From Bacteroidota bacterium (GTDB lineage: Bacteria > Bacteroidota > Bacteroidia > Bacteroidales > VadinHA17): a stretch of 63,215 bases of DNA. The stretch is from positions 1 through 63,215 of the forward strand of contig JAUZNW010000001.1 of NCBI GenBank assembly GCA_030706785.1. The letters run 5' to 3'. How positions within the stretch are numbered: position 1 is the stretch's first letter; each line of letters begins with the position of its first letter. The notes beneath the pieces were generated by a model, which saw only the letters and a program-made list of their open reading frames with translations, searched no databases and was not told the origin of the DNA. Below are positions 26,645 through 53,179 of the stretch, piece after piece. The translations under genes were made by a program, and so were the position numbers.

Positions 26645-26818
26645 ATGACCAGCAAAGACATTATTTTATACGCAGTCATAATTGCAGCTGTGGGCTTCAG
26701 CCTTTATAGGAGGTATGTTAAAAGTAAACAAGGAAAACCCGGCAATACCAGCCAGGCCCAGGGTACTTCTTTCCCATCATCGAAAGATGATGAGTATGAA
26801 CCATACTCGAAGAAGTAG
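26645..26818 (+). CDS. Small single-pass membrane protein (57 aa), below the ORF-track length cutoff
   Basis: The ATG at 26645 opens MTSKDIILYAVIIAAVGFSLYRRYVKSKQGKPGNTSQAQGTSFPSSKDDEYEPYSKK, with the stop at 26816-26818. It has one clear TM helix followed by a positively charged and then acidic tail. There is no homology evidence. Confidence 0.4.
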   Translation: MTSKDIILYAVIIAAVGFSLYRRYVKSKQGKPGNTSQAQGTSFPSSKDDEYEPYSKK

Positions 26819-26919: not shown

Positions 26920-28209
26920 TCATCTCCTGTTCCTGGAAATAAGATAGCGCATAGGATAGAAGATCTTCTGCAGCAGTCGAAGGTCCTCAGTTATTATTTC
27001 AGCTGTACCCTGCATGTTTTGTGTAAATTCGAGCTTTTTCCCGTAAAGGGTCACCAGGCCTGAAGGAAGTTTAAGCTCTATTATGTAGTTATCACCGGAT
27101 GGGACGAGTGATTTTGAGTTCACTATTCCTCTTACCATACCATATTGCAGGTACGGGAATCCGCTCAGCTTAATGTTCACTTCCTGACCAACTTTAACCT
27201 TACCTGACCTGTGCATCTTAAGGTTTATCCTCCCGATAAAATCTCCGGCATCAAACGGAACTATACTTAAAACCGGTTCATCCTTGGTGACTGTCTGATT
27301 CTCGCTCCAGAATTTTGTAAAAGTCACTATACCAGTCACCGGAGAGATAAGCAGATAGTTATTCTCCCAGATTTTTATCTGGGCTTTGAGGTTCATAAGC
27401 GATTCATTCAGAACAGAATAGTATTTTTCCCTCTCCTGGATTCTGGTGATCTTATAGTCCTGCAGCAATTGTCTTTTTTCAGCCAGTTCGATCGATTTCG
27501 CGGAATGGTCGAGCTTTACCTGCTGAAGATCAATATTCTGCTTGAGGAGTGACTGGCGCGATTTCTCAAGATCACTTTCGGAAAGGACACCGTTAACATG
27601 CAGCATTGAATCCCTTCCGAATTTTCTTTCCTCAAGCAACTGGTTCTCCGCAAAAAGTTCTTCCTTGACCTTCACCTTGCCGATATAAACAAGGATATTG
27701 TCAATTTCCTCAGTGAGAGAGGTGATTTTATTCCCGTAATAATCATTCAGATTATAATTATAGTAGTCCGAAAGGCTTTTCAGGAATGTGCCCCAGAACG
27801 GCTGCAACTCACCAAGCTCAGTAAAGTCCGGAAATCTTGCAAGTACAAGCTTCTCAGGATTGCTGATAGTATCAACCAGCATCTTAAGCCGGTTAACCTC
27901 ACTGATCGATGCTGCGGTCTCCATCACTGCAATCAATCTGCCCGACGTGATACTGTCCTTGTCGTTGACGTACAGGTTTTTGATCCTGCCGGTAATTTTA
28001 GACAGGAGAGTAACGGGGGGATTGACTGTTGTTATTTCGACCTGGGCAGGAACAATATCGGGATACTTAATTAACCATGCCAGGAAAACAATCAAAATGC
28101 ATACGATAAGTATGATGGTACTTCCCCATCTCAGTATCCTTCCCGGAGGGCGTCCCATTATTTCGCTTACAGGCTCTGAGTATACGATATCGTCTCTATT
28201 TTCTTCCAA
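26920..28209 (-). CDS. HlyD-family secretion/membrane-fusion protein (bacteriocin-exporter accessory type)
   Basis: 429 aa. It has an N-terminal cytoplasmic stretch and one TM (WGSTIILIVCILIVFLAWLI). It then has a coiled-coil hairpin region and a C-terminal beta-barrel. The gene is adjacent to and co-directional with the PCAT gene. Confidence 0.8.
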   Translation of the reverse strand: MEENRDDIVYSEPVSEIMGRPPGRILRWGSTIILIVCILIVFLAWLIKYPDIVPAQVEITTVNPPVTLLSKITGRIKNLYVNDKDSITSGRLIAVMETAASISEVNRLKMLVDTISNPEKLVLARFPDFTELGELQPFWGTFLKSLSDYYNYNLNDYYGNKITSLTEEIDNILVYIGKVKVKEELFAENQLLEERKFGRDSMLHVNGVLSESDLEKSRQSLLKQNIDLQQVKLDHSAKSIELAEKRQLLQDYKITRIQEREKYYSVLNESLMNLKAQIKIWENNYLLISPVTGIVTFTKFWSENQTVTKDEPVLSIVPFDAGDFIGRINLKMHRSGKVKVGQEVNIKLSGFPYLQYGMVRGIVNSKSLVPSGDNYIIELKLPSGLVTLYGKKLEFTQNMQGTAEIITEDLRLLQKIFYPMRYLISRNRR

Positions 28210-28217
28210 CTTCAGGT

Positions 28218-30404
28218 TTAATTGCCCAGTTCAAGCTGGTTTTTTACCAGATTAAAATATGCTCCTCTTTTTTCGATAAGGGTCTGATGATCACCGGTCT
28301 CAATTATCTGACCGCTGTCAAGGACCACGATCTTATCAGCATTCCTTACCGTGCTAAGGCGATGCGCTACAATTATTACGGTCTTACCCTTGAAAAATTC
28401 TGCCAGGTTTTCGACTATGACCTTCTCGGTATTTGCATCGAGTGAATTTGTCGCCTCGTCAAAGATCAGGATCTCAGGGTTTTTATAAATTACACGGGCT
28501 ATCAGCAGCCTTTGCTTCTGTCCCTCGCTAAGGCCATGCCCTTCAGAACCGATCTTTGTATTGTAACCGAGAGGAAGTGACTCGATAAGTCCCCTGATAT
28601 TGGCTGTTTCAGCAGCCTTTACCATCATTTCTTCATCTACCGGTGATGAACCTGGTGCTATGTTCCCGGCAATCGTGTCAGGGAACAGATAGCCATCCTG
28701 CATAACAGCCCCGACCTTTTCACGCCATAGCTTCAGACTTATATTAGAGAGACCGGTTTCGCCGACCATTATTTCACCCTTGACCGGCTGATAGAATCCA
28801 AGCAACATTTTCAGAAGCGTTGTCTTTCCACTTCCGCTTACACCCACTACCGCTGTCACCTTATTTTGTTCAATAAGAAGATCTGCGTCCTTCAATGCGA
28901 ATGGGGATCTTGGTCCTTCGTACTGGAACGAAAGATTCCTGACCGTTATGTTCTTGTTTTCAGGCAACCTTCTTACAAGATTCTCAGAATCAGCCTCTTC
29001 GTCTTCCATATTATGGACTTCTGCAAGCCTGTCGAGACTCATTTTTGCATCCTGCGACATCCTGAAGAAACCAATAATCTGACTCACGGGTACATTCATC
29101 TGGCCAATAATGAACTGAACTGCGAGCATCATACCAAGGGTCATGTTCCCTTTAAGGACTGCTGTTGCAGCAACTATAGTGATGAGTATATTCATGACCT
29201 CGCTGATAAATGTGGCTCCTGCTGACTGATATTGTATAAGCCTTAATCCTCTTACCTTCAGACCAAAAAGAGCTGCCTGGTGATATTCCCAGTTCCACCT
29301 CTTACTGAGCTCACTTTGCGTAAGCTTAATCTCCTGCATCCCGTTTATGATGCTGATCAGCTTTGAAACCGAAGCAGACATCTCCTTAAACCGGAGATTA
29401 TCGATCCGTGCACGTGATTTCATGAAGAGGGAAACCCAGAGAATGTACATGGCAGTGCCCACTATGAACAAGGCAACAATCTTAAGGCTGAATATTGCAA
29501 GTACGATGCCGAAAGTAACAAGATTAAAAAAGGAGAACAAGATGCTCAGACTCGCCGAGGTCAGGAATTCCTCTATCCTGTTATTGTCATCAATCCGCTG
29601 CAATATGTCGCCTGTCAGCTTTGAATCGAAGAAAGCTATCGGCAGGGCCATCAGCTTCTGAAGAAATCCTGAAATTATTGCTACGTTCACCCGTGATCCT
29701 ATGTGCAGCAGCAGCCAGCTCCGGATAAACTCGACCGACAATCTCCCGAGGACAAGCGCAAGCTGAGCAAAAAGAATAAGGTAAATAAATCCTATATCGT
29801 TATTGTTCAGACCAATATCTACTATTGATTGTGTAAGGAAAGGAATGATGAGCATTATACAGCTTCCGATCAGAAGACCGATTATCAGCTGTCCCAGATA
29901 TTTGCGATACAGCCTGAAGTAATTCAGGAGGAAGCTGAATCCCTTTTTTGTTTCCTGGTGATCTTCAATATTATAAAGGGCCGGTGTCGGTTCAATTAAC
30001 AGAACCAGTCCCGCCTTTTTACCATCTGCTATGGTGTAGGCCCAGTTTTGCTCAAATTCCTCCCGCGTATATTTTACCAGACCAGTTGCCGGATCAGCAA
30101 CCCAGATCATGCCGTTCTTTATCCTGTAAACGACAGTGAAGTGTCTTTGCTCCCAGTGAACAATACATGGCAGGGTGACTTTTTCCTCAAGAAGCTCAAA
30201 CGGAATCTTAACCCCTAATGTTCTGAATCCCAACGAATCGGCTGCCTCTGAAAGGCCCAGGAAAGATACTCCTCCCCTGGTGATAAAGCATTTCTTCCTT
30301 AAATAATCGATCGGGAAGCTCTTTTTGTAGTAACCCGCAACCATTTTAAGGCATGCAGGTCCGCAATCCATCGCATCATATTGTTTTACAAAGGGAAATA
30401 ACAT
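28218..30404 (-). CDS. Peptidase-C39-domain ABC exporter (PCAT; bacteriocin/peptide cleavage-export transporter)
   Basis: 728 aa. The N-terminal C39 domain has catalytic Cys in QYDAMDCGPACLKMV and His in VHWEQRHFTVVY. It has 6 TM helices. The NBD has Walker A GVSGSGKTT, signature LSEGQKQR and Walker B ILIFDEATNSLD. Confidence 0.92.
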   Translation of the reverse strand: MLFPFVKQYDAMDCGPACLKMVAGYYKKSFPIDYLRKKCFITRGGVSFLGLSEAADSLGFRTLGVKIPFELLEEKVTLPCIVHWEQRHFTVVYRIKNGMIWVADPATGLVKYTREEFEQNWAYTIADGKKAGLVLLIEPTPALYNIEDHQETKKGFSFLLNYFRLYRKYLGQLIIGLLIGSCIMLIIPFLTQSIVDIGLNNNDIGFIYLILFAQLALVLGRLSVEFIRSWLLLHIGSRVNVAIISGFLQKLMALPIAFFDSKLTGDILQRIDDNNRIEEFLTSASLSILFSFFNLVTFGIVLAIFSLKIVALFIVGTAMYILWVSLFMKSRARIDNLRFKEMSASVSKLISIINGMQEIKLTQSELSKRWNWEYHQAALFGLKVRGLRLIQYQSAGATFISEVMNILITIVAATAVLKGNMTLGMMLAVQFIIGQMNVPVSQIIGFFRMSQDAKMSLDRLAEVHNMEDEEADSENLVRRLPENKNITVRNLSFQYEGPRSPFALKDADLLIEQNKVTAVVGVSGSGKTTLLKMLLGFYQPVKGEIMVGETGLSNISLKLWREKVGAVMQDGYLFPDTIAGNIAPGSSPVDEEMMVKAAETANIRGLIESLPLGYNTKIGSEGHGLSEGQKQRLLIARVIYKNPEILIFDEATNSLDANTEKVIVENLAEFFKGKTVIIVAHRLSTVRNADKIVVLDSGQIIETGDHQTLIEKRGAYFNLVKNQLELGN

Positions 30405-30530
30405 TTCCTTACATCCGACCGTTTAGATATGGAAAGTAAAGATATTTATTATTTGATAAAAAACAGCTTACGTTATATACTTAAACAAACCATGCGCTGA
30501 CAGTTTGATACCTAACCTGTCAGGAAATGC

Positions 30531-30538
30531 TATATTTG
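30531..30538 (+). promoter_or_regulatory. Candidate -7 box TATATTTG (TAnnTTTG) for the sigma-factor gene
   Basis: It is an exact match to the Bacteroidota housekeeping -7 consensus, 29 nt upstream of the TTG start at 30567. It overlaps one copy of a TGWCAG repeat. Confidence 0.4.
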
Positions 30539-30566
30539 TCAGTTTATTTGGGAAAAAAATCAGCGA

Positions 30567-31124
30567 TTGTTCCGTAAGATCTCAGATAGCACAATCATTG
30601 ATGGTATCCGTCAACAGGATGATAAGATACTCAACTGGCTTTATGACAACTATCTTCAGACAGTAAGGCATCACGTGCTAAAGAACAGCGGTTCTGAGGC
30701 TGATGTTTCAGATGTGTTCCAGGAATCGATAATCGCTCTTTACAGGCAGATATCGGAGGATGGTTTGAACCTGACCTCCGACCTCAAGGGATATTTTTTC
30801 GGAATCGCGAGGAATATCTGGAGTGCTCAGCTCAGGAAAAAAAACAGAAACACAGAAATTGAAATTGATATACCAGACGAAACCGATAGTGAAGAATCAA
30901 AAAATCCGGTACTCGAGAGAATTGTGAGCCGGGCATTTGCAAAGCTGAACCCGGATGCAAGAATAATACTTACTTTATTTTCTGAGGGTTTTTCCTATCC
31001 TGAGATAGCAGTAAAAATGAATCTCAAGAATGAAACCTATGCACGCCGTAAAAAATATCTCAGCAAGGAAGCTCTGATGGCCTTAATAAAGGAAGATCCT
31101 GAGTACAAGGAATTCCTGGAATGA
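30567..31124 (+). CDS. Sigma-70 family RNA polymerase sigma factor, ECF-like (regions 2 and 4 only)
   Basis: 185 aa. Region 2 is VSDVFQESIIALYRQI ... YFFGIARNIWSAQLRK. Region 4 HTH is SYPEIAVKMNLKNETYARRKKYLSKEAL. It appears to start at TTG, with no in-frame ATG nearby. Confidence 0.8.
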   Translation: MFRKISDSTIIDGIRQQDDKILNWLYDNYLQTVRHHVLKNSGSEADVSDVFQESIIALYRQISEDGLNLTSDLKGYFFGIARNIWSAQLRKKNRNTEIEIDIPDETDSEESKNPVLERIVSRAFAKLNPDARIILTLFSEGFSYPEIAVKMNLKNETYARRKKYLSKEALMALIKEDPEYKEFLE

Positions 31125-34100
31125 GAAGATATCAGGGCGACTATTCCCGAAACAAGAATAATTACAGCACCAATTAACAGGAATATCTGTTTTGACGGGT
31201 AAAGCTGTGAATTGTTCCCGTAAATGACAAGGGATGACCAGAAATAAGGATGTGAGCGCAGCATATCAGCATTCTTCAGGTAGTCGATCCTGGCCTTTCT
31301 CAATGCCGTACTTTTTGTCTCACCCTTCTTCAGATTCCTGTAAAAGTCCTTCACTATCTCGGTTCCTGACCGGTCATCGATTTCCCACATCGACATTATC
31401 ACCGACTGGCTTCCTGCATAGATAAATCCCCTGGCCAGACTTAGTATTCCTTCTCCGGAATGTAACTTCCCTGATCCCGTGTTGCATGAGCTCAGTATCA
31501 CCATCTTGGCCTTCAGAGGAATCCCATAGACTTCATAAGTATTCAGGTTGCCGTCTTCCACTGAGTCTTTTTCCTGATAAAAAAGCATTTTCGAATACAT
31601 GGGGTACTGATCATTAAGGACCGTATGCATTGCAAGATGGATAACGTCATACTTTCCGGCTTCTGACTTAAAAACTGATTCCTTCGCTCCATTATTGATA
31701 CAAAGCTTCCCGTTTGTCAGACTTGTAACAAATTCTGCTTCTATCCTTGCATAAGGGAGATCGCGCAGCTTTGACAATCTTACCTGGCGTAAAATAAGCA
31801 GTGAGTCAACATCAATTGTGCCTGTGTAAACAGGAGCAAATGCTATTACACTGTTGCTAAAATTATTACTCTTTTTCGTGGATTCTGCAAGAAGGGTTGC
31901 AGAGTATGTGTATGAGATCCGGTAATCGTCCATAAGATACGGGATATCCCTGAACTGTGTTTTACCGGCAGGAGCATTACCAGCCGGTATGGCTTCGAAA
32001 GGAATATATGAAAGTATATTATCGGGAGAGATCAGAAGCTTGTCTGATATAAGATATTTTCTGACGGGCTCGAATATTGTCCTGTAAAGAATGCGTCCTG
32101 TCTCCTGAAACTGGGTGAAGCTTGTTCTGGCGCTGGTCAACGGATTTGAAAGCAGATTCCTGAACCTCCTGATGGTTTCAAAAAATCCTGAATCGATTGA
32201 TATTGTAAGCAGCTCCTGGTGCTTTCGGTTCGTAAGGAATATATAAATACAGGTATCAGCAACAACATAATTAAGGTAGTTCGTATTTCTGCCTGTTATT
32301 CTGGGTATATCGTGCGGACCGAGTACACTTGTATTGTATTTTATCTGGTAATATTCGGGATAATTCTTTTCAAGGACATTTATCAGGGAATCCCGTTTTT
32401 GCGTGGCGCTCAGTACAACGTTTTTCCATTCCGAGACGACTGAAGCATCAGTTTTCTTCCCGGCATTCTCTTCTGAAATCATTGCATTGTAGAAACCTAT
32501 TTCCATTTTGAGGCGACGTTCAAGGTCAGCAATTTCAGGAGGAATGTGGAACTGTGTCGCTTTAAGCTCCCTGGTTGATGCCAGCAGGCCTGCAACTTTG
32601 CTTTTTTCTGAATATTCAAAGGCTTTGTCTCTGTATGCTTTATTACCTGTTTGTTTATAGCAAAGGTCAAAATCACGTATTGCATACAGGTATGCATCCC
32701 GGTACCTGTCGCCGAGGATGACCCGGCTGTCTTCCTCGCTGATGTTAATTCTTACCTTCTCAATCAGTCGCACCAGCAGCTCGCTTGTATTAGATGCTGT
32801 CTCAAGAAAATTGTAATATTTGCTTTTACTGTAGAGATCCCAGAGTATCCTGTATTTTGCCTTAAGCACATTTATTGTCCACTGGTCTGCCTCCATCTGA
32901 TCAGGATCGGGATTTCCAAGAGCGGGTAATTTCCCTTTCCCGTTAATCCCGTGGAACAACAACCCCTGAACGACCTCAAGTGCTTTCTCCGCCTCTCCGT
33001 TTCCTGAAAGCGTCAGTGCATATCCCAGGAGAACCTGATCTTTCAATGAAACGTCTTCACTGTGATTGTTTAAATACGAAAGGCATTGTTCATAAAGCCT
33101 AAGTGATTTATTTATATCGATATTGAAAGTTCTGAGGTATTCTGCATAGTTCTTCATAACCTCAAAATATTCTCTTGAATCAGGACCGGAAAAATCCCTG
33201 GCCTTATTTAGAGAATTGATTATCAGGATTTCCCCCTTTCTTATTTTGCCGGCATTTCCGAGTACTATTGCAAAGCTGTTGATCAGGTTGAACGAAAGCG
33301 ATGAATTAGATGATTTTATCAAACTGACCCCCCTGTTAAAATAGTCATCCGATTTCTTATTATTCCCTAAAAAGAAATAGGTGACCGCAAGGGTATTAAG
33401 CAGATTTATGTAATTATCATCTACTCCCAGCGAGAATACCTTGTATACCGATTCGGCTTTCTCGAGATACAGTACCGCCTTGGAATAGTCAGACATCCTT
33501 ACATAGCATGCACCGATACTTGTGTACAGGTTGGCGATATCCGCACCATAGCTTCCCTTGCTGCCGTTTATAAGCTTCAGGGCTGTATTGCCGGTGGCAA
33601 TTGCTTTATTATATTCATTCTGTCCGAAATAAGCTGATACCAGGCTGGAATAACCACTTAGCAGCAAAGGGCTTGATTCGCCGTATAGTTTCTTTTCCAC
33701 TTCCAGGGATTCCAGGGTATATTGTTCCATTTTCCTGTAATCGCCAAGGTTATTATATGCAATCCCCATATTGTAAAGGCATTTTGCAAGAATCTCATCC
33801 TCACTTATCTGTCTCCTGATCGAGGCCGATAACCTGAACCAGTTAATGGCTTCTGAATTTTCCCTCAGGACAAGATAATAAACCCCTATGTAAAACTGTG
33901 AAGCCGATGAAGTCAGGTTATCAATGTTATTACTCTTCAGGATTTTCAGCATCGACTTTACGATTATCCTGGAATTCATAGTGTCGCCTTCGGCAACAGC
34001 AGCTAAAATTTTTGCATTCAGCTTTTCAAGATCCCTCGAAGGATCATCACTCTGGGATCTGTGATCTGTCTCAAACTCCATATCAGAATCATCACTGTTG

Positions 34101-34198
34101 TATGGTATGACATTACTGGCCTGTGTGTCCGAATAATTCCAGCAGGACAGCATGGAGCATACGATCAGGAGCCGCAATATGCGATATAAATAAATCAT
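31037..34198 (-). CDS. Membrane-anchored TPR-CHAT protein (caspase-like Cys protease fold)
   Basis: The ATG at 34198 gives the signal/lipoprotein-like N-terminus MIYLYRILRLLIVCSMLSC. An acidic linker follows, then about 8-10 TPR-like repeats (e.g. AKCLYNMGIAYNNLGDYRKMEQY, ANLYTSIGACYVRMSDYSKAVLY). The C-terminal CHAT domain has His in DVIHLAMHT and Cys in VILSSCNTGSG, followed by GEGILSLARGF. The C-terminal TM helix IFLLIGAVIILVSGIVALI is followed by a basic 35-aa tail. The track start at 34261 is TTG. Confidence 0.85.
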   Translation of the reverse strand: MIYLYRILRLLIVCSMLSCWNYSDTQASNVIPYNSDDSDMEFETDHRSQSDDPSRDLEKLNAKILAAVAEGDTMNSRIIVKSMLKILKSNNIDNLTSSASQFYIGVYYLVLRENSEAINWFRLSASIRRQISEDEILAKCLYNMGIAYNNLGDYRKMEQYTLESLEVEKKLYGESSPLLLSGYSSLVSAYFGQNEYNKAIATGNTALKLINGSKGSYGADIANLYTSIGACYVRMSDYSKAVLYLEKAESVYKVFSLGVDDNYINLLNTLAVTYFFLGNNKKSDDYFNRGVSLIKSSNSSLSFNLINSFAIVLGNAGKIRKGEILIINSLNKARDFSGPDSREYFEVMKNYAEYLRTFNIDINKSLRLYEQCLSYLNNHSEDVSLKDQVLLGYALTLSGNGEAEKALEVVQGLLFHGINGKGKLPALGNPDPDQMEADQWTINVLKAKYRILWDLYSKSKYYNFLETASNTSELLVRLIEKVRINISEEDSRVILGDRYRDAYLYAIRDFDLCYKQTGNKAYRDKAFEYSEKSKVAGLLASTRELKATQFHIPPEIADLERRLKMEIGFYNAMISEENAGKKTDASVVSEWKNVVLSATQKRDSLINVLEKNYPEYYQIKYNTSVLGPHDIPRITGRNTNYLNYVVADTCIYIFLTNRKHQELLTISIDSGFFETIRRFRNLLSNPLTSARTSFTQFQETGRILYRTIFEPVRKYLISDKLLISPDNILSYIPFEAIPAGNAPAGKTQFRDIPYLMDDYRISYTYSATLLAESTKKSNNFSNSVIAFAPVYTGTIDVDSLLILRQVRLSKLRDLPYARIEAEFVTSLTNGKLCINNGAKESVFKSEAGKYDVIHLAMHTVLNDQYPMYSKMLFYQEKDSVEDGNLNTYEVYGIPLKAKMVILSSCNTGSGKLHSGEGILSLARGFIYAGSQSVIMSMWEIDDRSGTEIVKDFYRNLKKGETKSTALRKARIDYLKNADMLRSHPYFWSSLVIYGNNSQLYPSKQIFLLIGAVIILVSGIVALISSHSRNSLYSGSSFIKAIRASLLRYFLRRA

Positions 34199-34448
34199 CA
34201 GAGGTGATCTGATTTTTAGAATTCCCCGCGTAAATATTGCATGTTTATTTAACAAAGCCAATGCAAATATAAAAAATTTGAATGTATATCAATGGTAAGT
34301 AATTGATTACCTTGAAATAACGAATTTTTTGATAAAATATTTGATTTTTCTGTGTCACAAATGGTGTAATACCGACATGTTACAGTGTAATGATCGCAAG
34401 AATTACGAATTACCCGAATTAAGTATCAATGATTAAAACATTAAAGAG

Positions 34449-34586
34449 ATGAAAACCCTGAATTTTGAACCTATCGAAGAAATTTTTGGAGATTACGCTC
34501 TTACTGCGGAAGAAATGATTTGTGTTAAAGGTGGTGATGCCGGAGAACCAATTGTCAAACCAGCTCAGCCGCCGATAAAGATTTGA
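34449..34586 (+). CDS. Double-glycine-leader peptide precursor (45 aa), predicted 16-aa mature peptide DAGEPIVKPAQPPIKI
   Basis: My own translation is MKTLNFEPIEEIFGDYALTAEEMICVKGG/DAGEPIVKPAQPPIKI, with the stop TGA at 34584-34586. The leader ends in an L-x-x-E-E-M-x-x-V-K-G-G motif, typical of substrates of C39 ABC exporters. The ORF is too short for the supplied ORF track. Confidence 0.6.
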   Translation: MKTLNFEPIEEIFGDYALTAEEMICVKGGDAGEPIVKPAQPPIKI

Positions 34587-34604
34587 CAAACCTTTTTTGA
34601 CAGG

Positions 34605-34623
34605 CCTGCTTAAGCGAAGCAGG
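34605..34623 (+). terminator. Stem-loop just downstream of the peptide ORF (weak terminator/attenuator candidate)
   Basis: cctgctt-aagcg-aagcagg forms a 7-bp stem 19 nt after the peptide stop codon. Only a short U-tract (ttcagatt) follows, so termination is probably partial. Confidence 0.4.
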
Positions 34624-34787
34624 TTCAGATTGCAACCCTGTTACCAGGGATTGTTGTCTTGGATTTCGGATACAGGTCTGGACTGATTTTTTCAGCCGGA
34701 CATCGTGTTCATGAGTGCAAATACTGGCACAAGTTGTGCGTATGTATTTGATATATTGAAGTTTGGAATAATTATAAACGCGATATT

Positions 34788-35531
34788 ATGAAAACTATCG
34801 ATTTTTCATACTTCATCGAACGGTATAATGCCGGAGAGATGGACGAAGCTGAGATGCAATGGTTCAGGAAAGAACTAAGGGAAAACCAAAAACTAAGGAA
34901 GGAGGTTGAACTGAGGAATAAAACTGACGATATCCTGAAAAACCAGGATCTGATGAACCTCAGGAACAAGCTCAACGCAATTGAAAAGCAACGGGCTGTT
35001 ACAATGCCTGTGAGGAGAAACCGGCAGCCTGTAATCAAGTATGCCGCCGTAATTGCAGCCCTTATTATATTGGGCAGCCTTGCCCTTTTAACCAACAAAC
35101 GACAGAGTACCGATGAATTGATAGACCGGTACTATAAACCTTATGAGACAGCGTCAGCATCACGATCTGCTGAATTCATAAACAATAGCGATTACAATCT
35201 GGCCGTTGAATACTATAATATCAGGGACTACAGGAACGCTGCAATATATTTCAGCAGAGTTCTTGAAAAAGATCCTGATAACATGCATTCAACACTGCTG
35301 AACGGTATATCAAATTTTGAAATTCAGAATTACTCTGAAGCAAAGCGTTCCTTTTCAAAGGTAATAGACAATAACGACAACTATTATATCGATCATGCCC
35401 AATGGTACCTCGCGATGTGCTACATCCGAACGGATGAAAGAAGCAAGGCTGTCCAGGAGTTGACGTTAATTAAGAATTCGAATACAATCTATACCAAGCC
35501 TGCAAGGAAATTGCTGAGAAACCTCAGGTAA
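34788..35531 (+). CDS. Single-pass anti-sigma-like protein with a periplasmic TPR domain
   Basis: 247 aa. The N-terminal ~85 aa are helical and cytoplasmic (YFIERYNAGEMDEAEMQWFRKELRENQKLRKEVE resembles the N-terminus of Bacteroidota FecR-type anti-sigmas). A positive patch (RRNRQPVIK) precedes the TM helix YAAVIAALIILGSLALL. The C-terminal ~140 aa carry TPRs (AVEYYNIRDYRNAAIYFSRVLEKDPDN). The anti-sigma function is inferred. Confidence 0.65.
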   Translation: MKTIDFSYFIERYNAGEMDEAEMQWFRKELRENQKLRKEVELRNKTDDILKNQDLMNLRNKLNAIEKQRAVTMPVRRNRQPVIKYAAVIAALIILGSLALLTNKRQSTDELIDRYYKPYETASASRSAEFINNSDYNLAVEYYNIRDYRNAAIYFSRVLEKDPDNMHSTLLNGISNFEIQNYSEAKRSFSKVIDNNDNYYIDHAQWYLAMCYIRTDERSKAVQELTLIKNSNTIYTKPARKLLRNLR

Positions 35532-35567
35532 TTGATAAACGGGAAATAGTTACCAACCAATAAAGTA

Positions 35568-36404
35568 ATGTTCAACCTGTCGGGAAATATCAAGGAGGGT
35601 CCGGGAATACCTGAATCAAGGAACCAGGATGAAGCAAAGGTTATGGATCTCTGTAATCAGACCCTGACCAACTGCGCCTCAATTCTGACAGGAATTTCCC
35701 ATGAAATGAGAACGCAAATGAATGCAGTTGTTGCGTTTTCCTTCATGCTTAAAAATAAAGATTACAGTGAAGAGGAAAGAGAAGATTTCAGTAACCAGAT
35801 CTATTCCTCGTGTGAACAAATAATATCACTGTTCGACAATTTTCTTGATTCTGCAATCATTGATACGGGTAATTCAAAGGCAGAACCGGGAATATGCGAT
35901 CCGGACAAACTAATAAACAACTTAATTTCAGAATTCAGGGCTACTTTGAAAAAGGACAGGTACAAGGACCTGATCCTTATGACTGAGAACCAATCGTTGA
36001 GCCCGGCAGAGTGCATCATTGATACAAACAGGCTGACAAGGGTAATTCGTAACCTGTTTGAAAATGCTCTGTCAAACACAAAAGCGGGATATATAAAAGC
36101 CGGCTATTATTTCAGGGATGACAGACTGACTTTTTATATACTCGATTCGGGGCAGGGCTATGCCAAGAACAAAGAATTCCTACAAAGCAGGGATATTGCG
36201 ATCCCTCTTGCCAGGTTCAGTGATACTTATTCGGCAGTCAATCTCGCTCTTACACGCAAGCTTATCCAGTTACTTGATGGATCTGTTTGGATAGAAAACA
36301 ATGGATCAACGGGATCCGGGATCTATTTTTCAATTCCTGCGCCTACCGCAGTATCAGCCGAAAATGTTTTGAACAAATTTTCGAATACCATGAGCACGAT
36401 CTGA
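35568..36404 (+). CDS. Soluble histidine kinase core (DHp plus HATPase_c) without a recognisable sensor domain
   Basis: 278 aa. H-box ISHEMRTQMNAV at about residue 44, N-box RNLFENALSNT, G1 LDSGQG and G2 GSTGSG. There are no TM segments and no adjacent response regulator. Confidence 0.85.
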   Translation: MFNLSGNIKEGPGIPESRNQDEAKVMDLCNQTLTNCASILTGISHEMRTQMNAVVAFSFMLKNKDYSEEEREDFSNQIYSSCEQIISLFDNFLDSAIIDTGNSKAEPGICDPDKLINNLISEFRATLKKDRYKDLILMTENQSLSPAECIIDTNRLTRVIRNLFENALSNTKAGYIKAGYYFRDDRLTFYILDSGQGYAKNKEFLQSRDIAIPLARFSDTYSAVNLALTRKLIQLLDGSVWIENNGSTGSGIYFSIPAPTAVSAENVLNKFSNTMSTI

Positions 36405-40865: not shown

Positions 40866-43688
40866 TTAATCATTGACCAGGTTGTAACCGTCTTTCTTGC
40901 CTTTCTCGGTCTGAGGGATACCGTACTTCATCCAGGATGGAATCGGAGCTCCCTTCAGATAATGGTCAAAAAACTGCATCTTCCTTATTGAGAGATCCTT
41001 CCTGTTTGGTCGTTTTATCAGGTTATGCGCTTCATCATTATATGAAAGCATCCACGCAGGCTTACCCAGCCTTCTCAGGGCCGTAAGGAATTCTATTCCC
41101 TGGTACCAGGGGACAGCACCATCAGCATCGTTATGCATTAAAAGCAGGGGAGTATTTATCTTTGGAACGAAAAAGACCGGAGAATTCTCTATGAACTGGA
41201 GCGGTTTCTCCCAAATTGTCCCTCCAATCCTGCTCTGGTCGTGTTCATACTGAAACATCCTGCTCATTCCTGATTCCCACCTGATTCCCCCATAGGCGCT
41301 TATCATATTGCTTACGGCCGCTCCTGCGTATGCGCACTTGAAAAGGTCAGTCCTTGTAACCAGCCACGCAATCTGGTATCCTCCCCAGCTCTGTCCGTCA
41401 AGGCCCAGTCTTTCCCTGTCGATAAAATCATATCTGTCGAGAAGTGCATACGTTCCGCTCATTACCGCATTATAGCAGCTTTCACCAGGGTATCCGATGC
41501 GATATGTTATGTCAGGGACAAAAAGAAGATACCCGTTGCTTACCGCAAATGACCGGTTGATTATCGAAGCACTTGGGGCAGGAGGAAAATAATTGTAAAA
41601 GCCATCCGAACTTCTCTCATAAAAGTACACTATCATAGGGTATTTCTTTGAAGCGACAAAGTCTTCAGGCTTATAAAGGATTCCCTGAAGCTTTTGTTTA
41701 TCGAATGAAGTCCATTCTACCAGCTCGGCAGTGAGCCAGTTAAAGCTGCTTTGCTGAGGGTTGGTGACGGATAGTTTTTTGATATTGGTAAAATTAAGAT
41801 CGCTGACAAAAAGCTCAGGTGAAACCGAAAATGATTCTTTCTGCCAGATTACCCTGTCGGCATTTTTTGCTTTGGTCAGCAGACGCGGGAATGAAGCTTT
41901 CTCAAAGATGAGCTTTACCGGATCCTTCCTGTTAAAGAGGTTGATATAATAAAATCCTGCCTCTTTGTTCACATAGTTGAAGGTGGAAAGATAAAGAGGG
42001 CCTTTTAATGGAATGTATTCAACGTCCGGATCCAGATTAATATATCTGAATCTCAGATTATTTGTCCGGCCATATCCATTGGTTAAATTGACGGGTGCTT
42101 CATTCCTGTCAGTTTCGAATGACCAGATATCGTATCTGTCATATAACAGGACCTGTCGTTCACTTTCGGTAAACCCTGCAACACCGTAGGGTTCGGGATC
42201 ACTGGGGGTATCGTTGAGTTCATCATAGAAGGGAAAATTCCCGGGAACTGAAAGCATCCTCAAAATCTCTCCCGTTCCTGATCTCAGCGCCCATTCCTTT
42301 TTGTCAACATCCCAGCTGAGGATAAACTTCCCTCCGGGTGACAGCACAACCTGCGAGGGGTATCCGGTTAAAAGCTTCTGCCTGACTCCGTTTTCCAGGT
42401 TCACGATAAAATAATCCTGATAATCTCTTGATTCCCAGGATATGAGCTTACGATACCTTTTACCTGATGTACCGAGTGCATAATTACCTGATGATTTCAG
42501 ATCGAACCTGATAACGGGCATCGATGTATCTGCCAGCTGAAACATGATATTCCTGTCTGTATGGTAAACTGCCCTGTAGAACCTCTTCAATTCCTGATCT
42601 AGCTCTTTTTTCTGCATAGGCTGCAGCAGATCGTCATTCCATGACCAAATGTCGAGCTTATATTTTTCTTCATCAAGCAGCGTATCTTCAGGCTCTTTGA
42701 CAGGCTTTTGTGCTGTTCCGAAAAAGAGCCTGGTGCCGTCATTCGAAAATGTGATAGTACCATTCTCGCTTACGGACCACCCTGAGGGCATAGCCATAGT
42801 AGTGGTATCAACTATCCTGACAGCATTGTTAAATGAGGCTGACAACCAGAGATCGTAGATCCTGGTCTTAGCGGTATCACCTGAATATATAAAAGCAGAA
42901 TACTTACCAGAAGGATCATCCGCAATATTTTTTGCGCTGCCCTTACCCTCAAAAACGATCCTGGACTGTTCCTTCCCGGTATCAAAGACATTTACTTTGA
43001 AATTTTCAATTTTAGTAGTATCTGGTATATCCTGAATAAAGCTTATGGAGCCTCCATTTTTTGCTACGGCATATTCGATTACATCCTGGAACCTGAATTC
43101 TTTTCCCGATATCGGCTCAAGAATAACAAATTCAGCCCCTTTTGGCTCAGGTGTCTTTGTCGATTTCTTCTGATTTGCTTTTACGTTATTTAAGGAATCA
43201 GCTTTCTGTTTATCATCCTTTTTCCCGGATGGTTTCTTCTCAAGCAGGTAAGCCATCCACAAGCTTTTTTCAGAGGGGACCATAAATGACTTTACAGCAG
43301 GTATACTAACAGTCTCACCTTCAGGAAGTCTTCTTATTTCAAGGTTGTTTTTAGGCATTTGATCCTCCTTAAGCTTCTTCTTTTTGGCCTGCCTGGTAAC
43401 CAGGTAAGCCGGCTTCACCGAATAAGCGACATACCTGGAATTAGCAGAAAAGGAGGGATTAATCCCTCGAGCAACCGAGTCTTTCCTTCCTGTCAATAAA
43501 TTAAAGATGTAAAGCCATCCGTCCCCCTGCTGAGGCTCAATGATATAAGCAATCCAGTTGCCATCGTCAGATATTATTTGCCGGGTTATGCTTTTCCAGC
43601 TGTCATAAACCGACTGATCGAGAGGAGGCTTTTGTGCCTGAAGGTTTATCGCCGCACAAAACAATGCCAGTAGAAAAATCCTTTTCAT
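40866..43688 (-). CDS. S9-family serine peptidase (prolyl oligopeptidase/dipeptidyl-peptidase-like) with an N-terminal beta-propeller
   Basis: 940 aa with a signal peptide. The catalytic triad context is GQSWGGYQ (Ser), HNDADGAVP (Asp) and DEAHNL (His). Confidence 0.85.
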   Translation of the reverse strand: MKRIFLLALFCAAINLQAQKPPLDQSVYDSWKSITRQIISDDGNWIAYIIEPQQGDGWLYIFNLLTGRKDSVARGINPSFSANSRYVAYSVKPAYLVTRQAKKKKLKEDQMPKNNLEIRRLPEGETVSIPAVKSFMVPSEKSLWMAYLLEKKPSGKKDDKQKADSLNNVKANQKKSTKTPEPKGAEFVILEPISGKEFRFQDVIEYAVAKNGGSISFIQDIPDTTKIENFKVNVFDTGKEQSRIVFEGKGSAKNIADDPSGKYSAFIYSGDTAKTRIYDLWLSASFNNAVRIVDTTTMAMPSGWSVSENGTITFSNDGTRLFFGTAQKPVKEPEDTLLDEEKYKLDIWSWNDDLLQPMQKKELDQELKRFYRAVYHTDRNIMFQLADTSMPVIRFDLKSSGNYALGTSGKRYRKLISWESRDYQDYFIVNLENGVRQKLLTGYPSQVVLSPGGKFILSWDVDKKEWALRSGTGEILRMLSVPGNFPFYDELNDTPSDPEPYGVAGFTESERQVLLYDRYDIWSFETDRNEAPVNLTNGYGRTNNLRFRYINLDPDVEYIPLKGPLYLSTFNYVNKEAGFYYINLFNRKDPVKLIFEKASFPRLLTKAKNADRVIWQKESFSVSPELFVSDLNFTNIKKLSVTNPQQSSFNWLTAELVEWTSFDKQKLQGILYKPEDFVASKKYPMIVYFYERSSDGFYNYFPPAPSASIINRSFAVSNGYLLFVPDITYRIGYPGESCYNAVMSGTYALLDRYDFIDRERLGLDGQSWGGYQIAWLVTRTDLFKCAYAGAAVSNMISAYGGIRWESGMSRMFQYEHDQSRIGGTIWEKPLQFIENSPVFFVPKINTPLLLMHNDADGAVPWYQGIEFLTALRRLGKPAWMLSYNDEAHNLIKRPNRKDLSIRKMQFFDHYLKGAPIPSWMKYGIPQTEKGKKDGYNLVND

Positions 43689-48994: not shown

Positions 48995-50104
48995 ATGAAG
49001 AAAAAACTAAACCTGGTAATCACGATTTTCCTGATTATTGTACTTGCAGCAATAATCGCCTATCCAAAGGTAAAGCCGCTTTTTGCTGCAAAGTCCCCAA
49101 TGCCAGCTGCTCCTGGTGGTCCCGGCAGAGGACAGGGTGGTTCCATGCAGGGGAGACAGTTACTTAACGTGAGCGGATTTCTCATCAAGCCTGCGCAGCT
49201 TAGCGAACTGGTAAACAGCAACGGAACTTTAAGGCCTGATGAGGAGGTTGATCTTTCTTTCGAGACTTCCGGGAAAATTGTAGGGATTAATTTTACTGAA
49301 GGAAAAAGGGTACAAAAAGGAGATCTTCTCGCGAAGATAAATGATAAGCCATTACAGGCACAGCTTGAGAAACTTGAGGCGCAAATAAAGCTTGTTGAAC
49401 AAAAGGAATTCAGGCAGAGGAGCCTCCTCACAAAGGACGCAATAAGCCAGGAAAGTTATGACCAGATCGAAACAGAACTCCAGACCACCCAGGCTGATAT
49501 TAATCTTGTCAAGGCAATGATTGCTCAAACTGAACTCCGGGCACCGTTTGACGGGATAATCGGTCTTCGGTATGTAAGTGAAGGAAGCTATACTACACCG
49601 TCAACAAAAATTGCCAGGCTTATCAAGATCAAGCCATTAAAGCTCGAGTTCTCAATACCTGAACAATATGCTGATGAAATTAACATCGGTTTCCCTCTTT
49701 CTTTCAAGGTTACCGGTAACAATACAGTTTTTAATGCAAATGTTTATGCAGTTGATCCGAAGATTGAACTTAATACCCGTTCAATCGTAATAAGGGCATT
49801 GTATCCAAACAGGAATGAAGAGCTGAAATCCGGGCGGTATGCTGCAGTCACTCTGCAATTGTCAAAGATCGAAAATACTATTGCCATTCCTACTGAAGCG
49901 CTGGTTGTCGAAATGGAGGGTGAATCGGTGTTTATCTACAAGAAAGGTAAAGCATCGAAGGTTCCCGTTGGAACAGGCCTTCGCACAGAAGATCTTATTC
50001 AGATCGTTAACGGATTGAAATTTGGTGATACGTTGCTTACAACAGGGATACTCCAGTTGCGTCAGTCGCTTCCTGTTGTGCTCGACACACTTATTGTTAA
50101 TTAA
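48995..50104 (+). CDS. RND efflux periplasmic adaptor (membrane fusion protein)
   Basis: 369 aa. It has a signal anchor, a lipoyl/hairpin region (GDLLAKINDKPLQAQLEKLEAQ) and RAPFDGIIG. It lies upstream of the RND pump. Confidence 0.9.
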   Translation: MKKKLNLVITIFLIIVLAAIIAYPKVKPLFAAKSPMPAAPGGPGRGQGGSMQGRQLLNVSGFLIKPAQLSELVNSNGTLRPDEEVDLSFETSGKIVGINFTEGKRVQKGDLLAKINDKPLQAQLEKLEAQIKLVEQKEFRQRSLLTKDAISQESYDQIETELQTTQADINLVKAMIAQTELRAPFDGIIGLRYVSEGSYTTPSTKIARLIKIKPLKLEFSIPEQYADEINIGFPLSFKVTGNNTVFNANVYAVDPKIELNTRSIVIRALYPNRNEELKSGRYAAVTLQLSKIENTIAIPTEALVVEMEGESVFIYKKGKASKVPVGTGLRTEDLIQIVNGLKFGDTLLTTGILQLRQSLPVVLDTLIVN

Positions 50105-50125
50105 TTAACATATAATCAATAAAAT

Positions 50126-53100: not shown

Positions 53101-53179
53101 CATTGTCCCTGCAATCTATTCCTTTATTTCAAGTGAAACAAAAATGAGCCAAAATGAGAATAAGGTTACTCCCGTTTAG
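50126..53179 (+). CDS. RND-family multidrug efflux permease (AcrB-like)
   Basis: 1017 aa with 12-TM/two-loop architecture. It has SINRPVLSTV at the N-terminus and the conserved VVDDAIVVMENI. Confidence 0.95.
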   Translation: MSLSSVSINRPVLSTVFALVILLFGIVGATFLGIREFPSVDPAIITVQTTYPGANSDVIETQITEPLEQNINGIPGVRSLTSVSRQGGSNITVEFELSVDLETAANDVRDKVSQAQRLLPRDCDPPIVTKADADANPILFLTVESSKRSLLELSEIADLTLKQQLQTISGVSAVSIFGEKRYSMRLMIDPVKLAGYELTPMDVRNAVNRENVELPSGTIEGTNTQLTIRTLGLMSTPKEFNDLIIKQSGDQIVRFKDIGRAELGPEDIRSIMKKDGVPMVQIAIVPQPGSNHIDIVDETYRRLQYIRKDLPDDVKVNVNYDNTQYIRSSIKEVKNTIYIAFALVVVIIYFFLRSWRATTIPILVIPVSLVGAFFIMYIAGFTINVLTLLAIVLSIGIVVDDAIVVMENIYVKVESGFSPIDAALKGSKEIYFAIISTTITLISVFFPIVFLQGITGRLFREFAIVMAGAVGISAFLALSLTPMVSSKLLRHEKRHSWFFRKTERFFDKLNTAYRNGLGSFLLHRRAALIIIVVAVGLVVLLWKSIPSEMAPLEDRSQVTINTTAPEGSTYDFMLAYCDDIAKLVEQKVPERLNYATMVRGGGMGNIRIMLEKPDKRKRSQQEIADEMTSDLRKKTKARSFVMQQSTFGSRRMGMPVQYVLQATSIDKLRQILPTFMARVMESKVLTMADVNLKFTLPELRVHINREKAITLGVSTQNIGQTLQLALSGQRFGYFFMNGKEYQILGDLARADRNKPLDLKSLYVRNDKGDMIQFDNLVSLSEETAPPQLYRYNRFVAATISAGLAKGKTMSEGLAEMDQIAKQVLDESFRTALAGDSKDFRESSSSLMFAFVLSLILIFLVLAAQFESFKDPLIVMMTVPLALIGALIFMWYFGITMNIFSEIGIIMLIGLVTKNGILIVEFANQRKISGMSKMDAIKYAAAARLRPILMTSLATILGISPLALGLGEGAQSRVAMGTAVIGGMVFATFLSLFIVPAIYSFISSETKMSQNENKVTPV

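Follow-up and report, generated by a model that had tools for sequence, protein, structure and literature searches.

A conserved sigma factor, anti-sigma-like and TPR-CHAT protease gene module in Bacteroidales: a candidate proteolytic switch accompanied by a double-glycine peptide

Analysis of a 63,215-bp contig of a Bacteroidota metagenome-assembled genome (MAG), referred to here as the window, showed seven neighbouring genes, three of which form a conserved module: a sigma factor of the extracytoplasmic function (ECF) type, a single-pass anti-sigma-like protein with a tetratricopeptide repeat (TPR) domain, and a membrane-anchored TPR-CHAT protein. Linkage of this triad survives in rearranged contexts in distant relatives, and the triad is therefore regarded as a real, conserved module. 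The other four genes encode a 45-aa precursor peptide with a double-glycine (GG) leader, a peptidase-containing ABC transporter (PCAT), a HlyD-family membrane fusion protein and a histidine kinase. The seven genes are tentatively proposed to work as a split form of the DdvA-DdvS switch of Myxococcus with a peptide circuit added to it, a reading drawn from sequence comparison which falls somewhat short of an even chance when taken as a whole.

Conservation and architecture of the sigma, anti-sigma-like and TPR-CHAT triad

All seven open reading frames (ORFs) were present on the coordinates and strands given in the original prediction, and each of its domain assignments was upheld by Pfam and NCBIfam profile searches. 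The HlyD and PCAT genes lie on the minus strand and are followed by the sigma gene (plus), the CHAT gene (minus) and the genes for the peptide, the transmembrane-TPR (TM-TPR) anti-sigma-like protein and the kinase (all plus). The sigma gene had been called divergent, which is correct relative to the exporter genes; with the CHAT gene it is convergent. The two genes overlap by 88 nt in the window (31037-31124) and by 91-97 nt in most related loci; the C-terminal anchor of the CHAT protein and the last helix of the sigma factor are encoded here on opposite strands of the same DNA, and antisense interference between the two transcripts is possible. Around the seven genes are housekeeping genes (YidC, CTP synthase, DUF349, OmpA-PD40 protein and QueE). 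The window contained no CRISPR-like repeat array, in agreement with the earlier claim that the locus has none.

Close relatives were collected by a scan of one genome per GTDB species with the CHAT protein, which gave 497 relatives, and the best 80 were taken. These 80 were all from Bacteroidales MAGs, many of them labelled Rikenellaceae, and the whole block was kept in the 80 GTDB species. All loci of sufficient length shared the order queE, OmpA-PD40, kinase, TM-TPR, peptide, CHAT, sigma, PCAT, HlyD, DUF349 and pyrG, with the exceptions that the kinase was lost in L012, L030 and L048 and the peptide in L048. Because the housekeeping flanks are equally syntenic, synteny among close relatives alone proves little about functional linkage.

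Distant relatives were more informative on this point. The set comprised 11 loci with TM-TPR homologues (~22-27% identity) and usable context (L081, L085 and L087-L095), while L086 was left out as a 1.7-kb contig with no context; a metagenome scan with a distant anti-sigma homologue gave two loci only. The surroundings of the distant loci were unrelated to those of the window. A homologous sigma gene (28-38% identity where detected) lay directly upstream and co-directional in 9 of the 11 loci, and a tenth had a cut ORF that is a probable sigma gene. A TPR-CHAT gene of the same architecture, with signal peptide and C-terminal anchor, was found within ~6.5 kb in 7 of the 11 (L081, L085, L087, L088, L091, L092 and L093). 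At least four gene orders were seen: CHAT adjacent and convergent (L088, L091), genes for cholesterol-dependent cytolysin-like (CDCL) proteins in between (L081, L087, L092, L093), other genes in between (L085), and the order of the window itself. With a handful of CHAT genes per genome, we estimate that one would lie this close by chance in ~1% of cases. The linkage of the sigma, TM-TPR and CHAT genes that had been predicted for related genomes thus holds outside the syntenic clade too, and the CHAT protein is very probably linked in function to the sigma and anti-sigma pair.

The CDCL genes (PF01289, pore-forming toxins) between the sigma/anti-sigma pair and the TPR-CHAT gene were located at 5018-6901 in L081, 5397-9203 in L087, 3728-5566 in L092 and 1711-3546 in L093, and the same interval also held a methionine sulfoxide reductase gene in L081 and L093. 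Small ORFs beside the CHAT genes of the distant loci formed no conserved family, and one of them was a fragment of a broken CHAT gene. Membership of the triad is not universal among TPR-CHAT genes, since those of L082-L084, which are unrelated (~26% identity), stand without a sigma or anti-sigma neighbour.

For the TPR-CHAT protein, the predicted gene and its coordinates stood, and the length was corrected from 1050 aa to 1053 aa, counted from the ATG at 34198. A longer ORF from a TTG, reaching to 34261, is unlikely because its start falls at or within a candidate housekeeping -7 box (34264-34271). Pfam searches showed four TPR_12 matches and a CHAT domain (PF12770, E 4.3e-55) spanning model positions 1-289 of 289. 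Like its orthologues, the protein has a segment resembling a signal peptide at its N-terminus and a strong hydrophobic helix (residues 1005-1023) with a basic tail after it at its C-terminus. With these two segments, most of the protein is expected to sit in the periplasm on an inner-membrane tether, and its predicted location outside the cytoplasm was supported in the window and in the orthologues alike.

The candidate catalytic residues His858 (HLAMH) and Cys905 (SSCNTG) were invariant in 23 orthologues and in 6 homologues of ~25-30% identity. The CHAT domain as a single sequence produced no match among PDB sequences and a profile was needed, with which the best match was DdvA (8rot_B, E 0.0025), followed by Csx29 chains. 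His858 and Cys905 align with H862 and C907 of DdvA, the dyad given in PMC11506125, and with Csx29, and the claim that the His/Cys dyad sits at the catalytic positions was borne out by this alignment. An AlphaFold model of the TPR-CHAT protein (pLDDT 71) gave DdvA, separase and Csx29 as full-length matches in Foldseek, and an exact look-up of the CHAT protein of the window returned no record.

The TM-TPR protein has one hydrophobic segment (residues 82-100), preceded by a helical N-terminal domain and followed by the TPR domain, and the prediction that this TPR domain lies outside the cytoplasm agreed with the single-segment topology. Its AlphaFold model (pLDDT 78) showed four N-terminal helices, a low-confidence transmembrane and linker stretch, and a C-terminal domain of three TPRs that resembles the TPR domains of YbgF, Sti1, CHIP and SycD, several of which were solved with bound peptides. 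The N-terminal domain had no match in Pfam, an NCBIfam match far under the cut-off (NF052375 'antisigma', E 0.005), and chance-level matches only when its profile was searched against the PDB. The anti-sigma domain family zf-HC2 matched 7 of 19 N-termini of the family, with a best value of 7.5e-5. Residues 1-80 of the window protein contained no His/Cys (zinc-binding CHCC) motif, and the homologue of L085 was the sole member with such a motif (H-x3-C-x2-C). A juxtamembrane motif, [FY]-x-P-Y-x6-R-[SG], was near-invariant across homologues of ~25% identity and reads Y-K-P-Y-x6-R-S in the window (35133-35168, residues 116-127). In the model it belongs to the stretch of low confidence, and it is a candidate for docking or for cleavage.

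The sigma factor scored above the cut-offs for Sigma70_r2 (29.9 bits, cut-off 24), Sigma70_r4_2 (27.8, cut-off 25.7) and TIGR02937 (65, cut-off 42.9), matches that put it in the ECF (group 4) class of sigma-70 factors, and had no transmembrane segment. The sigma and anti-sigma genes of the window are parted by the CHAT and peptide genes, and their homologues are adjacent and co-directional in nine distant loci. The sigma factor would in all likelihood bind and pair with the TM-TPR anti-sigma protein, judging from these gene arrangements. An attempt to place the sigma factor in one of the ECF groups gave no assignment, and the ECF classification paper contained no mention of CHAT.

The double-glycine peptide, its exporter and the promoter region

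The 45-codon peptide ORF is taken as a real gene because it was kept in 74 of the 75 syntenic loci whose sequence spans this part, because its third codon positions vary most (entropy of the leader codons 1.30 at third positions versus 0.73 and 0.73 at the others), and because its leader is canonical. The leader consensus, F-x-E-[FY]-x-L-[ST]-x-E-E-M-I-x-V-[KR]-G-G, is of the canonical double-glycine type, and the core consensus, [DE]-x-[DE]-P-[IV]-[IVL]-x-P-x-x-P-P-[VI]-[KRI]-[ILV]-COOH, is 12-18 aa long with an acidic start. This was the sole GG-leader ORF in the window, 4 kb from the PCAT gene and on the same strand as the anti-sigma gene, 200 nt upstream of it; the TIGR01847 profile produced no match to the peptide. 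Five identical tandem copies of the peptide gene with a 196-nt period were present in L040 (8890-9700, minus strand), and two copies with cores differing at a few positions in L074 (9440-9680, minus strand). The core P-I-V-K-P-A-Q-P-P-I-K-I (34548-34583) presumably bears a loose likeness to the C-terminal half of insect apidaecin-type peptides (P-V-Y-I-P-Q-P-R-P-P-H-P-R-L), with the strong positive charge missing. A gene of the S9 prolyl-oligopeptidase family was located at 40866-43688 (minus strand), 4.5 kb from the locus of this Pro-rich peptide.

In the PCAT, an alignment with LahT150 (6mpz), PCAT1 (4ry2) and ComA puts the oxyanion residue Gln8 and residues Cys14, His88 and Asp104 at the catalytic positions, and by this alignment the C39 active site of the exporter is intact. 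Identity of the PCAT was 72-83% across complete syntenic loci, and that of the HlyD protein 55-78% across syntenic loci. The HlyD protein has one N-terminal transmembrane segment (residues 29-47) and matched TIGR01843 end to end with a score under the cut-off. We consider it highly probable that the PCAT exports the peptide. A 57-aa ORF with one transmembrane segment and a C-terminal DDYEPYSKK motif was observed at 26645-26818 (plus strand), convergent with the 3' end of the HlyD gene and conserved in at least 51 of 80 syntenic loci; its product may belong to the export system as a small membrane protein, perhaps with an immunity-like role, or have nothing to do with it.

Upstream of the peptide gene, a two-block motif with a fixed spacer, TGTCACAAA-N11-CGACATGT, occurred once per locus in 73 loci, at this place only and ~70 nt before the peptide ATG. 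In L048 (9724-10000), where the peptide ORF is deleted, the motif directly precedes the anti-sigma gene. It is therefore read as marking where the promoter of the anti-sigma operon lies, which is what an ECF system under autoregulation would be expected to show. It is unlike the Bacteroidetes housekeeping promoter, and a housekeeping-type box precedes the sigma gene instead. TGTCACA has been described as the -35 element of ECF41 promoters (PMC3426412). The architecture of the motif is ECF-like by sequence, and the chance that it is served by the sigma factor of this locus is put at about even. Two other readings of the region were tried and rejected: a sigma-54 reading of TGTCAC, as the would-be -12 positions were not conserved, and a second ECF-like promoter, GAATTAC-N16-GTATC, as its upstream half was not conserved.

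The Bacteroidetes housekeeping -7 consensus, known from Bacteroides promoters, is TAnnTTTG. Upstream of the sigma gene, the block GGAAAT.CTATATTTG was conserved in 78 loci, and the perfect -7 box there is listed in Table 1. A further block in the PCAT-sigma intergenic region resembles the same box, which suggests a promoter there as well. Between the promoter motif of the peptide operon and the start codon, the conserved GAATTACGAATTACCCGAATTAAGTATCAA element had neither a match in Rfam nor a consensus fold at the RNA level; a protein might bind to it, such as a regulator acting under the orphan kinase. The stem-loop after the peptide stop codon was found at the same place in most loci with differing stem sequences and pairing kept by compensatory changes, and is likely to be a partial terminator or a 3' stabiliser between the peptide and anti-sigma genes. 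A further hairpin was located at 34636-34649.

Co-variation of the peptide with its possible partners was measured over 60 loci as distance correlations with Mantel p values, and the results are graded as suggestive only. The core correlated with the periplasmic domain of the anti-sigma protein (r 0.32, p 0.0005) and with the TPR region of the CHAT protein (r 0.32, p 0.0005), and to a lower degree with the CHAT protease domain (r 0.23, p 0.0005) and the cytoplasmic domain of the anti-sigma protein (r 0.16, p 0.009). Its correlation with the C39 domain of the PCAT (r 0.06, p 0.19) and with the rest of the PCAT (r 0.05, p 0.25) was not significant. The best partner of the leader was the PCAT (r 0.68, p 0.0005). 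In 99% of bootstraps, the value for the core with the periplasmic anti-sigma domain exceeded those with the cytoplasmic anti-sigma domain and with the CHAT protease domain. The periplasmic domain of the anti-sigma protein correlated with the CHAT TPR region at r 0.81 and with its own cytoplasmic domain at r 0.53; the value of 0.81 is as close as that of the two halves of CHAT, or of PCAT, with each other.

The kinase has the H-box SHEMRT and only ~35 residues ahead of its HisKA domain, and neither a transmembrane segment nor a sensor domain. No Response_reg gene was found among the window neighbours examined. The kinase was absent from three species (L012, L030 and L048) in which the region was covered, and is for this reason regarded as a dispensable accessory member. 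Searches of the whole window produced no Rfam family and no PADLOC defence-system match beyond generic ABC ATPase similarity, and a defence-system reading was dropped on that account. The features of the locus are shown in Table 1.

Table 1. Genes and non-coding elements of the locus, with positions in the window
Feature	Position	Strand	Description
HlyD-family membrane fusion protein, 429 aa	26920-28209	-	Pfam HlyD_3, E 4e-7; PCAT partner
PCAT, 728 aa	28218-30404	-	C39 protease, transmembrane domain and ATPase; Pfam Peptidase_C39 (1.6e-35), ABC_membrane, ABC_tran
Conserved PCAT-sigma intergenic block	30430-30449		TATCTTTA on the PCAT strand; columns at least 90% conserved in a 78-locus alignment
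Housekeeping -7 box TATATTTG	30531-30538	+	Perfect TAnnTTTG; the conserved TTG at which the sigma gene starts lies 29 nt downstream
ECF-type sigma factor, 185 aa	30567-31124	+	Sigma70_r2, Sigma70_r4_2, TIGR02937
Predicted membrane-anchored periplasmic TPR-CHAT protein, 1053 aa	31037-34198	-	Signal peptide, ~12 TPR pairs, CHAT, C-terminal transmembrane helix, basic tail
Two-block promoter-like motif TGTCACAAA-N11-CGACATGT	34353-34380	+	Upstream of the peptide/anti-sigma operon; fixed spacer
Conserved element GAATTACGAATTACCCGAATTAAGTATCAA	34400-34429	+	Peptide leader region, between promoter motif and start codon; conserved in alignment
GG precursor peptide, 45 aa	34449-34586	+	29-aa double-glycine leader and 16-aa Pro-rich core DAGEPIVKPAQPPIKI; conserved coding ORF
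Hairpin CCTGCTT-AAGCG-AAGCAGG	34605-34623	+	Just 3' of the peptide stop codon
Single-pass anti-sigma-like TM-TPR protein, 247 aa	34788-35531	+	Pfam TPR families
Cytoplasmic histidine kinase core, 278 aa	35568-36404	+	Pfam HisKA PF00512 and HATPase_c PF02518 above cut-off

Comparison with known systems

The only characterised anti-sigma factor with a periplasmic TPR-CHAT part is DdvA of Myxococcus, in which the domains are fused, the signal is unidentified and self-cleavage has been proposed (PMC11506125). Removal of the periplasmic domain exposes DdvA to RseP, and reports of DdvA-like proteins were confined to Myxococcota and one Comamonas (PMC11506125). The triad and DdvA-DdvS share an ECF sigma factor, a single-pass anti-sigma and a periplasmic TPR-CHAT part with an intact His-Cys dyad, and they would also share the proposed logic, with CHAT as the site-1 protease on the juxtamembrane linker, followed by RseP. 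The triad is regarded as a split version of the fused DdvA-DdvS because the anti-sigma and TPR-CHAT parts are separate proteins. In the window they are encoded by separate genes on opposite strands, and they are separate in all the distant loci. The protease of the window has a C-terminal anchor of its own and the anti-sigma protein a small TPR domain of its own, and any cleavage would be in trans. The window also differs from DdvA in that its anti-sigma protein lacks the zinc-binding CHCC motif, no CBASS or CRISPR regulon lies nearby, a GG-leader peptide and a PCAT are added, and the host belongs to Bacteroidota.

The original prediction had compared the locus with Csx29, Csx30 and RpoE. The likeness in TPR-CHAT and sigma factor stands, and the nearer relationship to DdvA-DdvS had been missed. 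The type III-E craspase (Cas7-11, Csx29, Csx30, Csx31, RpoE) resembles the locus in that a TPR-CHAT protein is tied to control of an ECF-type sigma factor via cleavage of an inhibitor. Craspase is, however, cytoplasmic and RNA-guided, whereas the protease of the window is predicted to be exported and membrane-anchored, with no Cas7-11 and no CRISPR array.

Among regulated intramembrane proteolysis systems, RseA-DegS/RseP, RsiW-PrsW and FecR-type-Prc are similar in having a single-pass anti-sigma whose periplasmic domain is removed before the site-2 step, and a linked envelope protease gene. The candidate site-1 protease of the window would be a caspase-fold CHAT protein and not a serine protease or metalloprotease.

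The export genes are like those of ComAB/ComC, PCAT1, LahT and CvaAB, with a C39-ABC exporter that has the conserved Cys, His and Asp, a fusion partner and a canonical GG leader. Unlike ComAB/ComC, the window comes from a Gram-negative host, and an outer-membrane factor is missing from the locus. The kinase of the window also lacks a membrane sensor, which ComD has, and comes without a response regulator; periplasmic TPR domains feeding the ECF sigma factor are instead the candidate receptors. Predicted Bacteroidales clusters of RiPPs (ribosomal peptides that are modified after translation) and GG peptides also combine GG precursors with a PCAT and a membrane fusion protein, and TPR genes were noted in them as possible regulators (PMC10352776). 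Those clusters have modification enzymes, of which there are none at the window locus, and sigma, anti-sigma and CHAT genes are unmentioned (PMC10352776).

Binding of short linear peptides by TPR domains is known from the RRNPP receptors (Rap, NprR, PlcR, Rgg) and from Sti1/Hop, CHIP and SycD. The TPR model of the anti-sigma protein superposes on the domains of Sti1, CHIP and SycD solved with peptides. The TPR profile of the CHAT protein weakly matches Rap and NprR chains, which is generic TPR similarity and no evidence of homologous function. In contrast to the window, the RRNPP receptors are cytoplasmic and need import of the peptide.

CDCLs are antibacterial toxins of Bacteroidota that are activated proteolytically, in Bacteroides by a clan-CD (C11) protease (PMC11169675). 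Full-text literature searches gave no description of a Bacteroidota triad, nor of a PCAT and GG peptide joined to an ECF system. To our knowledge, CHAT-domain proteins are common in Bacteroidota, and the periplasmic membrane-anchored ones have no known function.

Proposed mechanism, alternative explanations and implications

In the proposed mechanism, the cytoplasmic N-terminal domain of the anti-sigma protein would hold the ECF sigma factor, and its three-TPR domain would be exposed to the periplasm. On a periplasmic cue, the tethered CHAT protease would remove the periplasmic part of the anti-sigma protein, with the P-Y-x6-R-S juxtamembrane linker as candidate site; the trimmed protein would then pass to intramembrane proteolysis and the sigma factor would be freed. 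The 45-aa precursor, presumably co-transcribed with the anti-sigma protein and the kinase from the conserved ECF-like promoter, would be cut after Gly-Gly and exported by the C39-ABC exporter and HlyD. The 12-18-aa Pro-rich product would be read by periplasmic TPR surfaces, and the result would be a self-reinforcing, autoinducer-like loop damped by the co-expressed anti-sigma protein. The signs of peptide quorum sensing are indirect ones: the conserved core, its co-variation with the TPR domains, and a promoter through which a feedback loop could be closed. That CHAT is the protease of the anti-sigma protein is a tentative assignment, rated a little below even, and that the peptide is the ligand is held more tentatively still. 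Cleavage of the anti-sigma protein by CHAT, gated by the peptide, is plausible as a hypothesis.

Several observations weigh against this mechanism. The peptide, PCAT and HlyD genes join the triad in one clade only, where the pyrG, DUF349, OmpA-PD40 and queE flanks are syntenic too, and their linkage could for that reason be inherited and not selected. None of the 11 distant loci contained PCAT, HlyD or GG peptide genes, and the peptide and exporter are, by these comparisons, specific to the clade of the window, which is one Bacteroidales family. L048 has no peptide gene and no kinase, yet it kept the sigma, CHAT, anti-sigma, PCAT and HlyD genes; since the triad and exporter were retained there and the distant relatives have no peptide, the peptide is an add-on and not a core part. 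The triad itself was incomplete in some distant loci, as the 10 kb to each side in L089 contained no CHAT gene and three further loci, on short or cut contigs, had none in the available sequence. A search for the TGTCAC...CGAC motif across the window, the 23-kb syntenic loci and the distant loci found it only upstream of the peptide/anti-sigma operon; it was absent upstream of the sigma, CHAT and PCAT genes and from the distant loci, and nothing ties it to this sigma factor. The correlations are of the mirror-tree kind, which are confounded by differences in evolutionary rate, and the peptide is short. Gram-negative PCAT-HlyD systems normally push their cargo out via an outer-membrane channel. 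The sole gene for a TolC-type outer-membrane factor (OEP) in the window is part of an RND efflux operon (48995-54476, plus strand), 17 kb off, and with no channel gene at the locus the path by which the peptide would get to the periplasmic TPR domains is a question for the mechanism. In Myxococcus, mutating the catalytic residues of DdvA was without phenotype in the absence of its signal, and cleavage by CHAT is unproven even there (PMC11506125).

The alternative that survives best is that the triad is a regulator with another input, such as envelope damage or a periplasmic protein of a competitor or phage, and that the peptide is a regulated output, bacteriocin-like or otherwise secreted, as the CDCL toxins would be elsewhere; we hold this to be somewhat less likely than the proposed mechanism. 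The peptide gene stands behind an alternative-sigma-like promoter, and this arrangement suggests that the peptide fits as an output at least as well as an input. CDCL genes occupy the interval between sigma/anti-sigma and TPR-CHAT in L081, L087, L092 and L093, the five-fold peptide gene of L040 and the diverged duplicate of L074 are commonplace for secreted effector peptides, and L048 and all distant loci have the triad but no peptide. The core, however, is a short stretch of 12-18 aa, close to neutral in charge, that 74 species have conserved, and it co-varies with the periplasmic TPR domains and does not drift alone. No recognisable immunity gene was annotated, the sole candidate being the 57-aa transmembrane ORF beside the HlyD gene, and the peptide shares an operon with the anti-sigma protein. 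The roles of input and output are also not mutually exclusive.

It is improbable that the TPR-CHAT protein is instead a periplasmic maturation protease for cargo, that is for CDCLs elsewhere and for the acidic N-terminus of the peptide here, with the sigma and anti-sigma proteins only controlling expression. This would fit the need of CDCL toxins for proteolytic activation, which a clan-CD (C11) protease performs in Bacteroides (PMC11169675), as well as the CDCL genes adjoining CHAT genes in four distant loci and the conserved acidic residues at the start of the core, which lead into a conserved Pro-[IV]-[IVL]. But the CHAT gene abuts sigma/anti-sigma in L088 and L091 without an intervening cargo gene, the periplasmic domain of the anti-sigma protein co-varies with CHAT as strongly as the CHAT halves do together, and DdvA shows that TPR-CHAT and anti-sigma can be a single polypeptide. 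The weakest explanation is that a peptide export system, an ordinary ECF pair with a periplasmic protease nearby and an orphan kinase are unrelated neighbours in a syntenic region, which is likewise improbable. In its favour, the housekeeping flanks are as syntenic as the seven genes, the PCAT and peptide are never beside the triad in the distant loci, and three species have lost the kinase and one the peptide. Against it, the peptide gene and the anti-sigma gene belong to one transcription unit with a shared conserved promoter, the linkage of the triad outlasts at least four rearrangements, and co-variation ties the core to the TPR domains and the leader to the PCAT.

The split DdvA-DdvS-type switch is discussed here as a combination of parts of known kinds that is new as a combination, and not as a new category. 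A complete circuit from an exported Pro-rich peptide through periplasmic TPR domains to CHAT, cleavage of the anti-sigma protein in trans, the ECF sigma factor and back to the peptide gene would be of a kind undescribed in any phylum, and we regard the existence of this full novel circuit as doubtful, its chance being well below even. In the split form, the protease and its putative substrate are separate and a candidate ligand is encoded next door in one family, and the autoproteolysis hypothesis for DdvA would thereby become testable with purified parts. If the mechanism is true, the anti-sigma protein would be the first demonstrated substrate of a periplasmic CHAT protease, and the circuit the first peptide quorum-sensing route via an ECF sigma factor. 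Peptide cell-cell signalling is regarded as a Gram-positive trait, and a PCAT-exported peptide wired to an ECF sigma factor would revise this picture in an abundant environmental and gut-associated order. In other lineages, the position of the triad beside genes for CDCL antibacterial toxins is a hint that it may control interbacterial antagonism.

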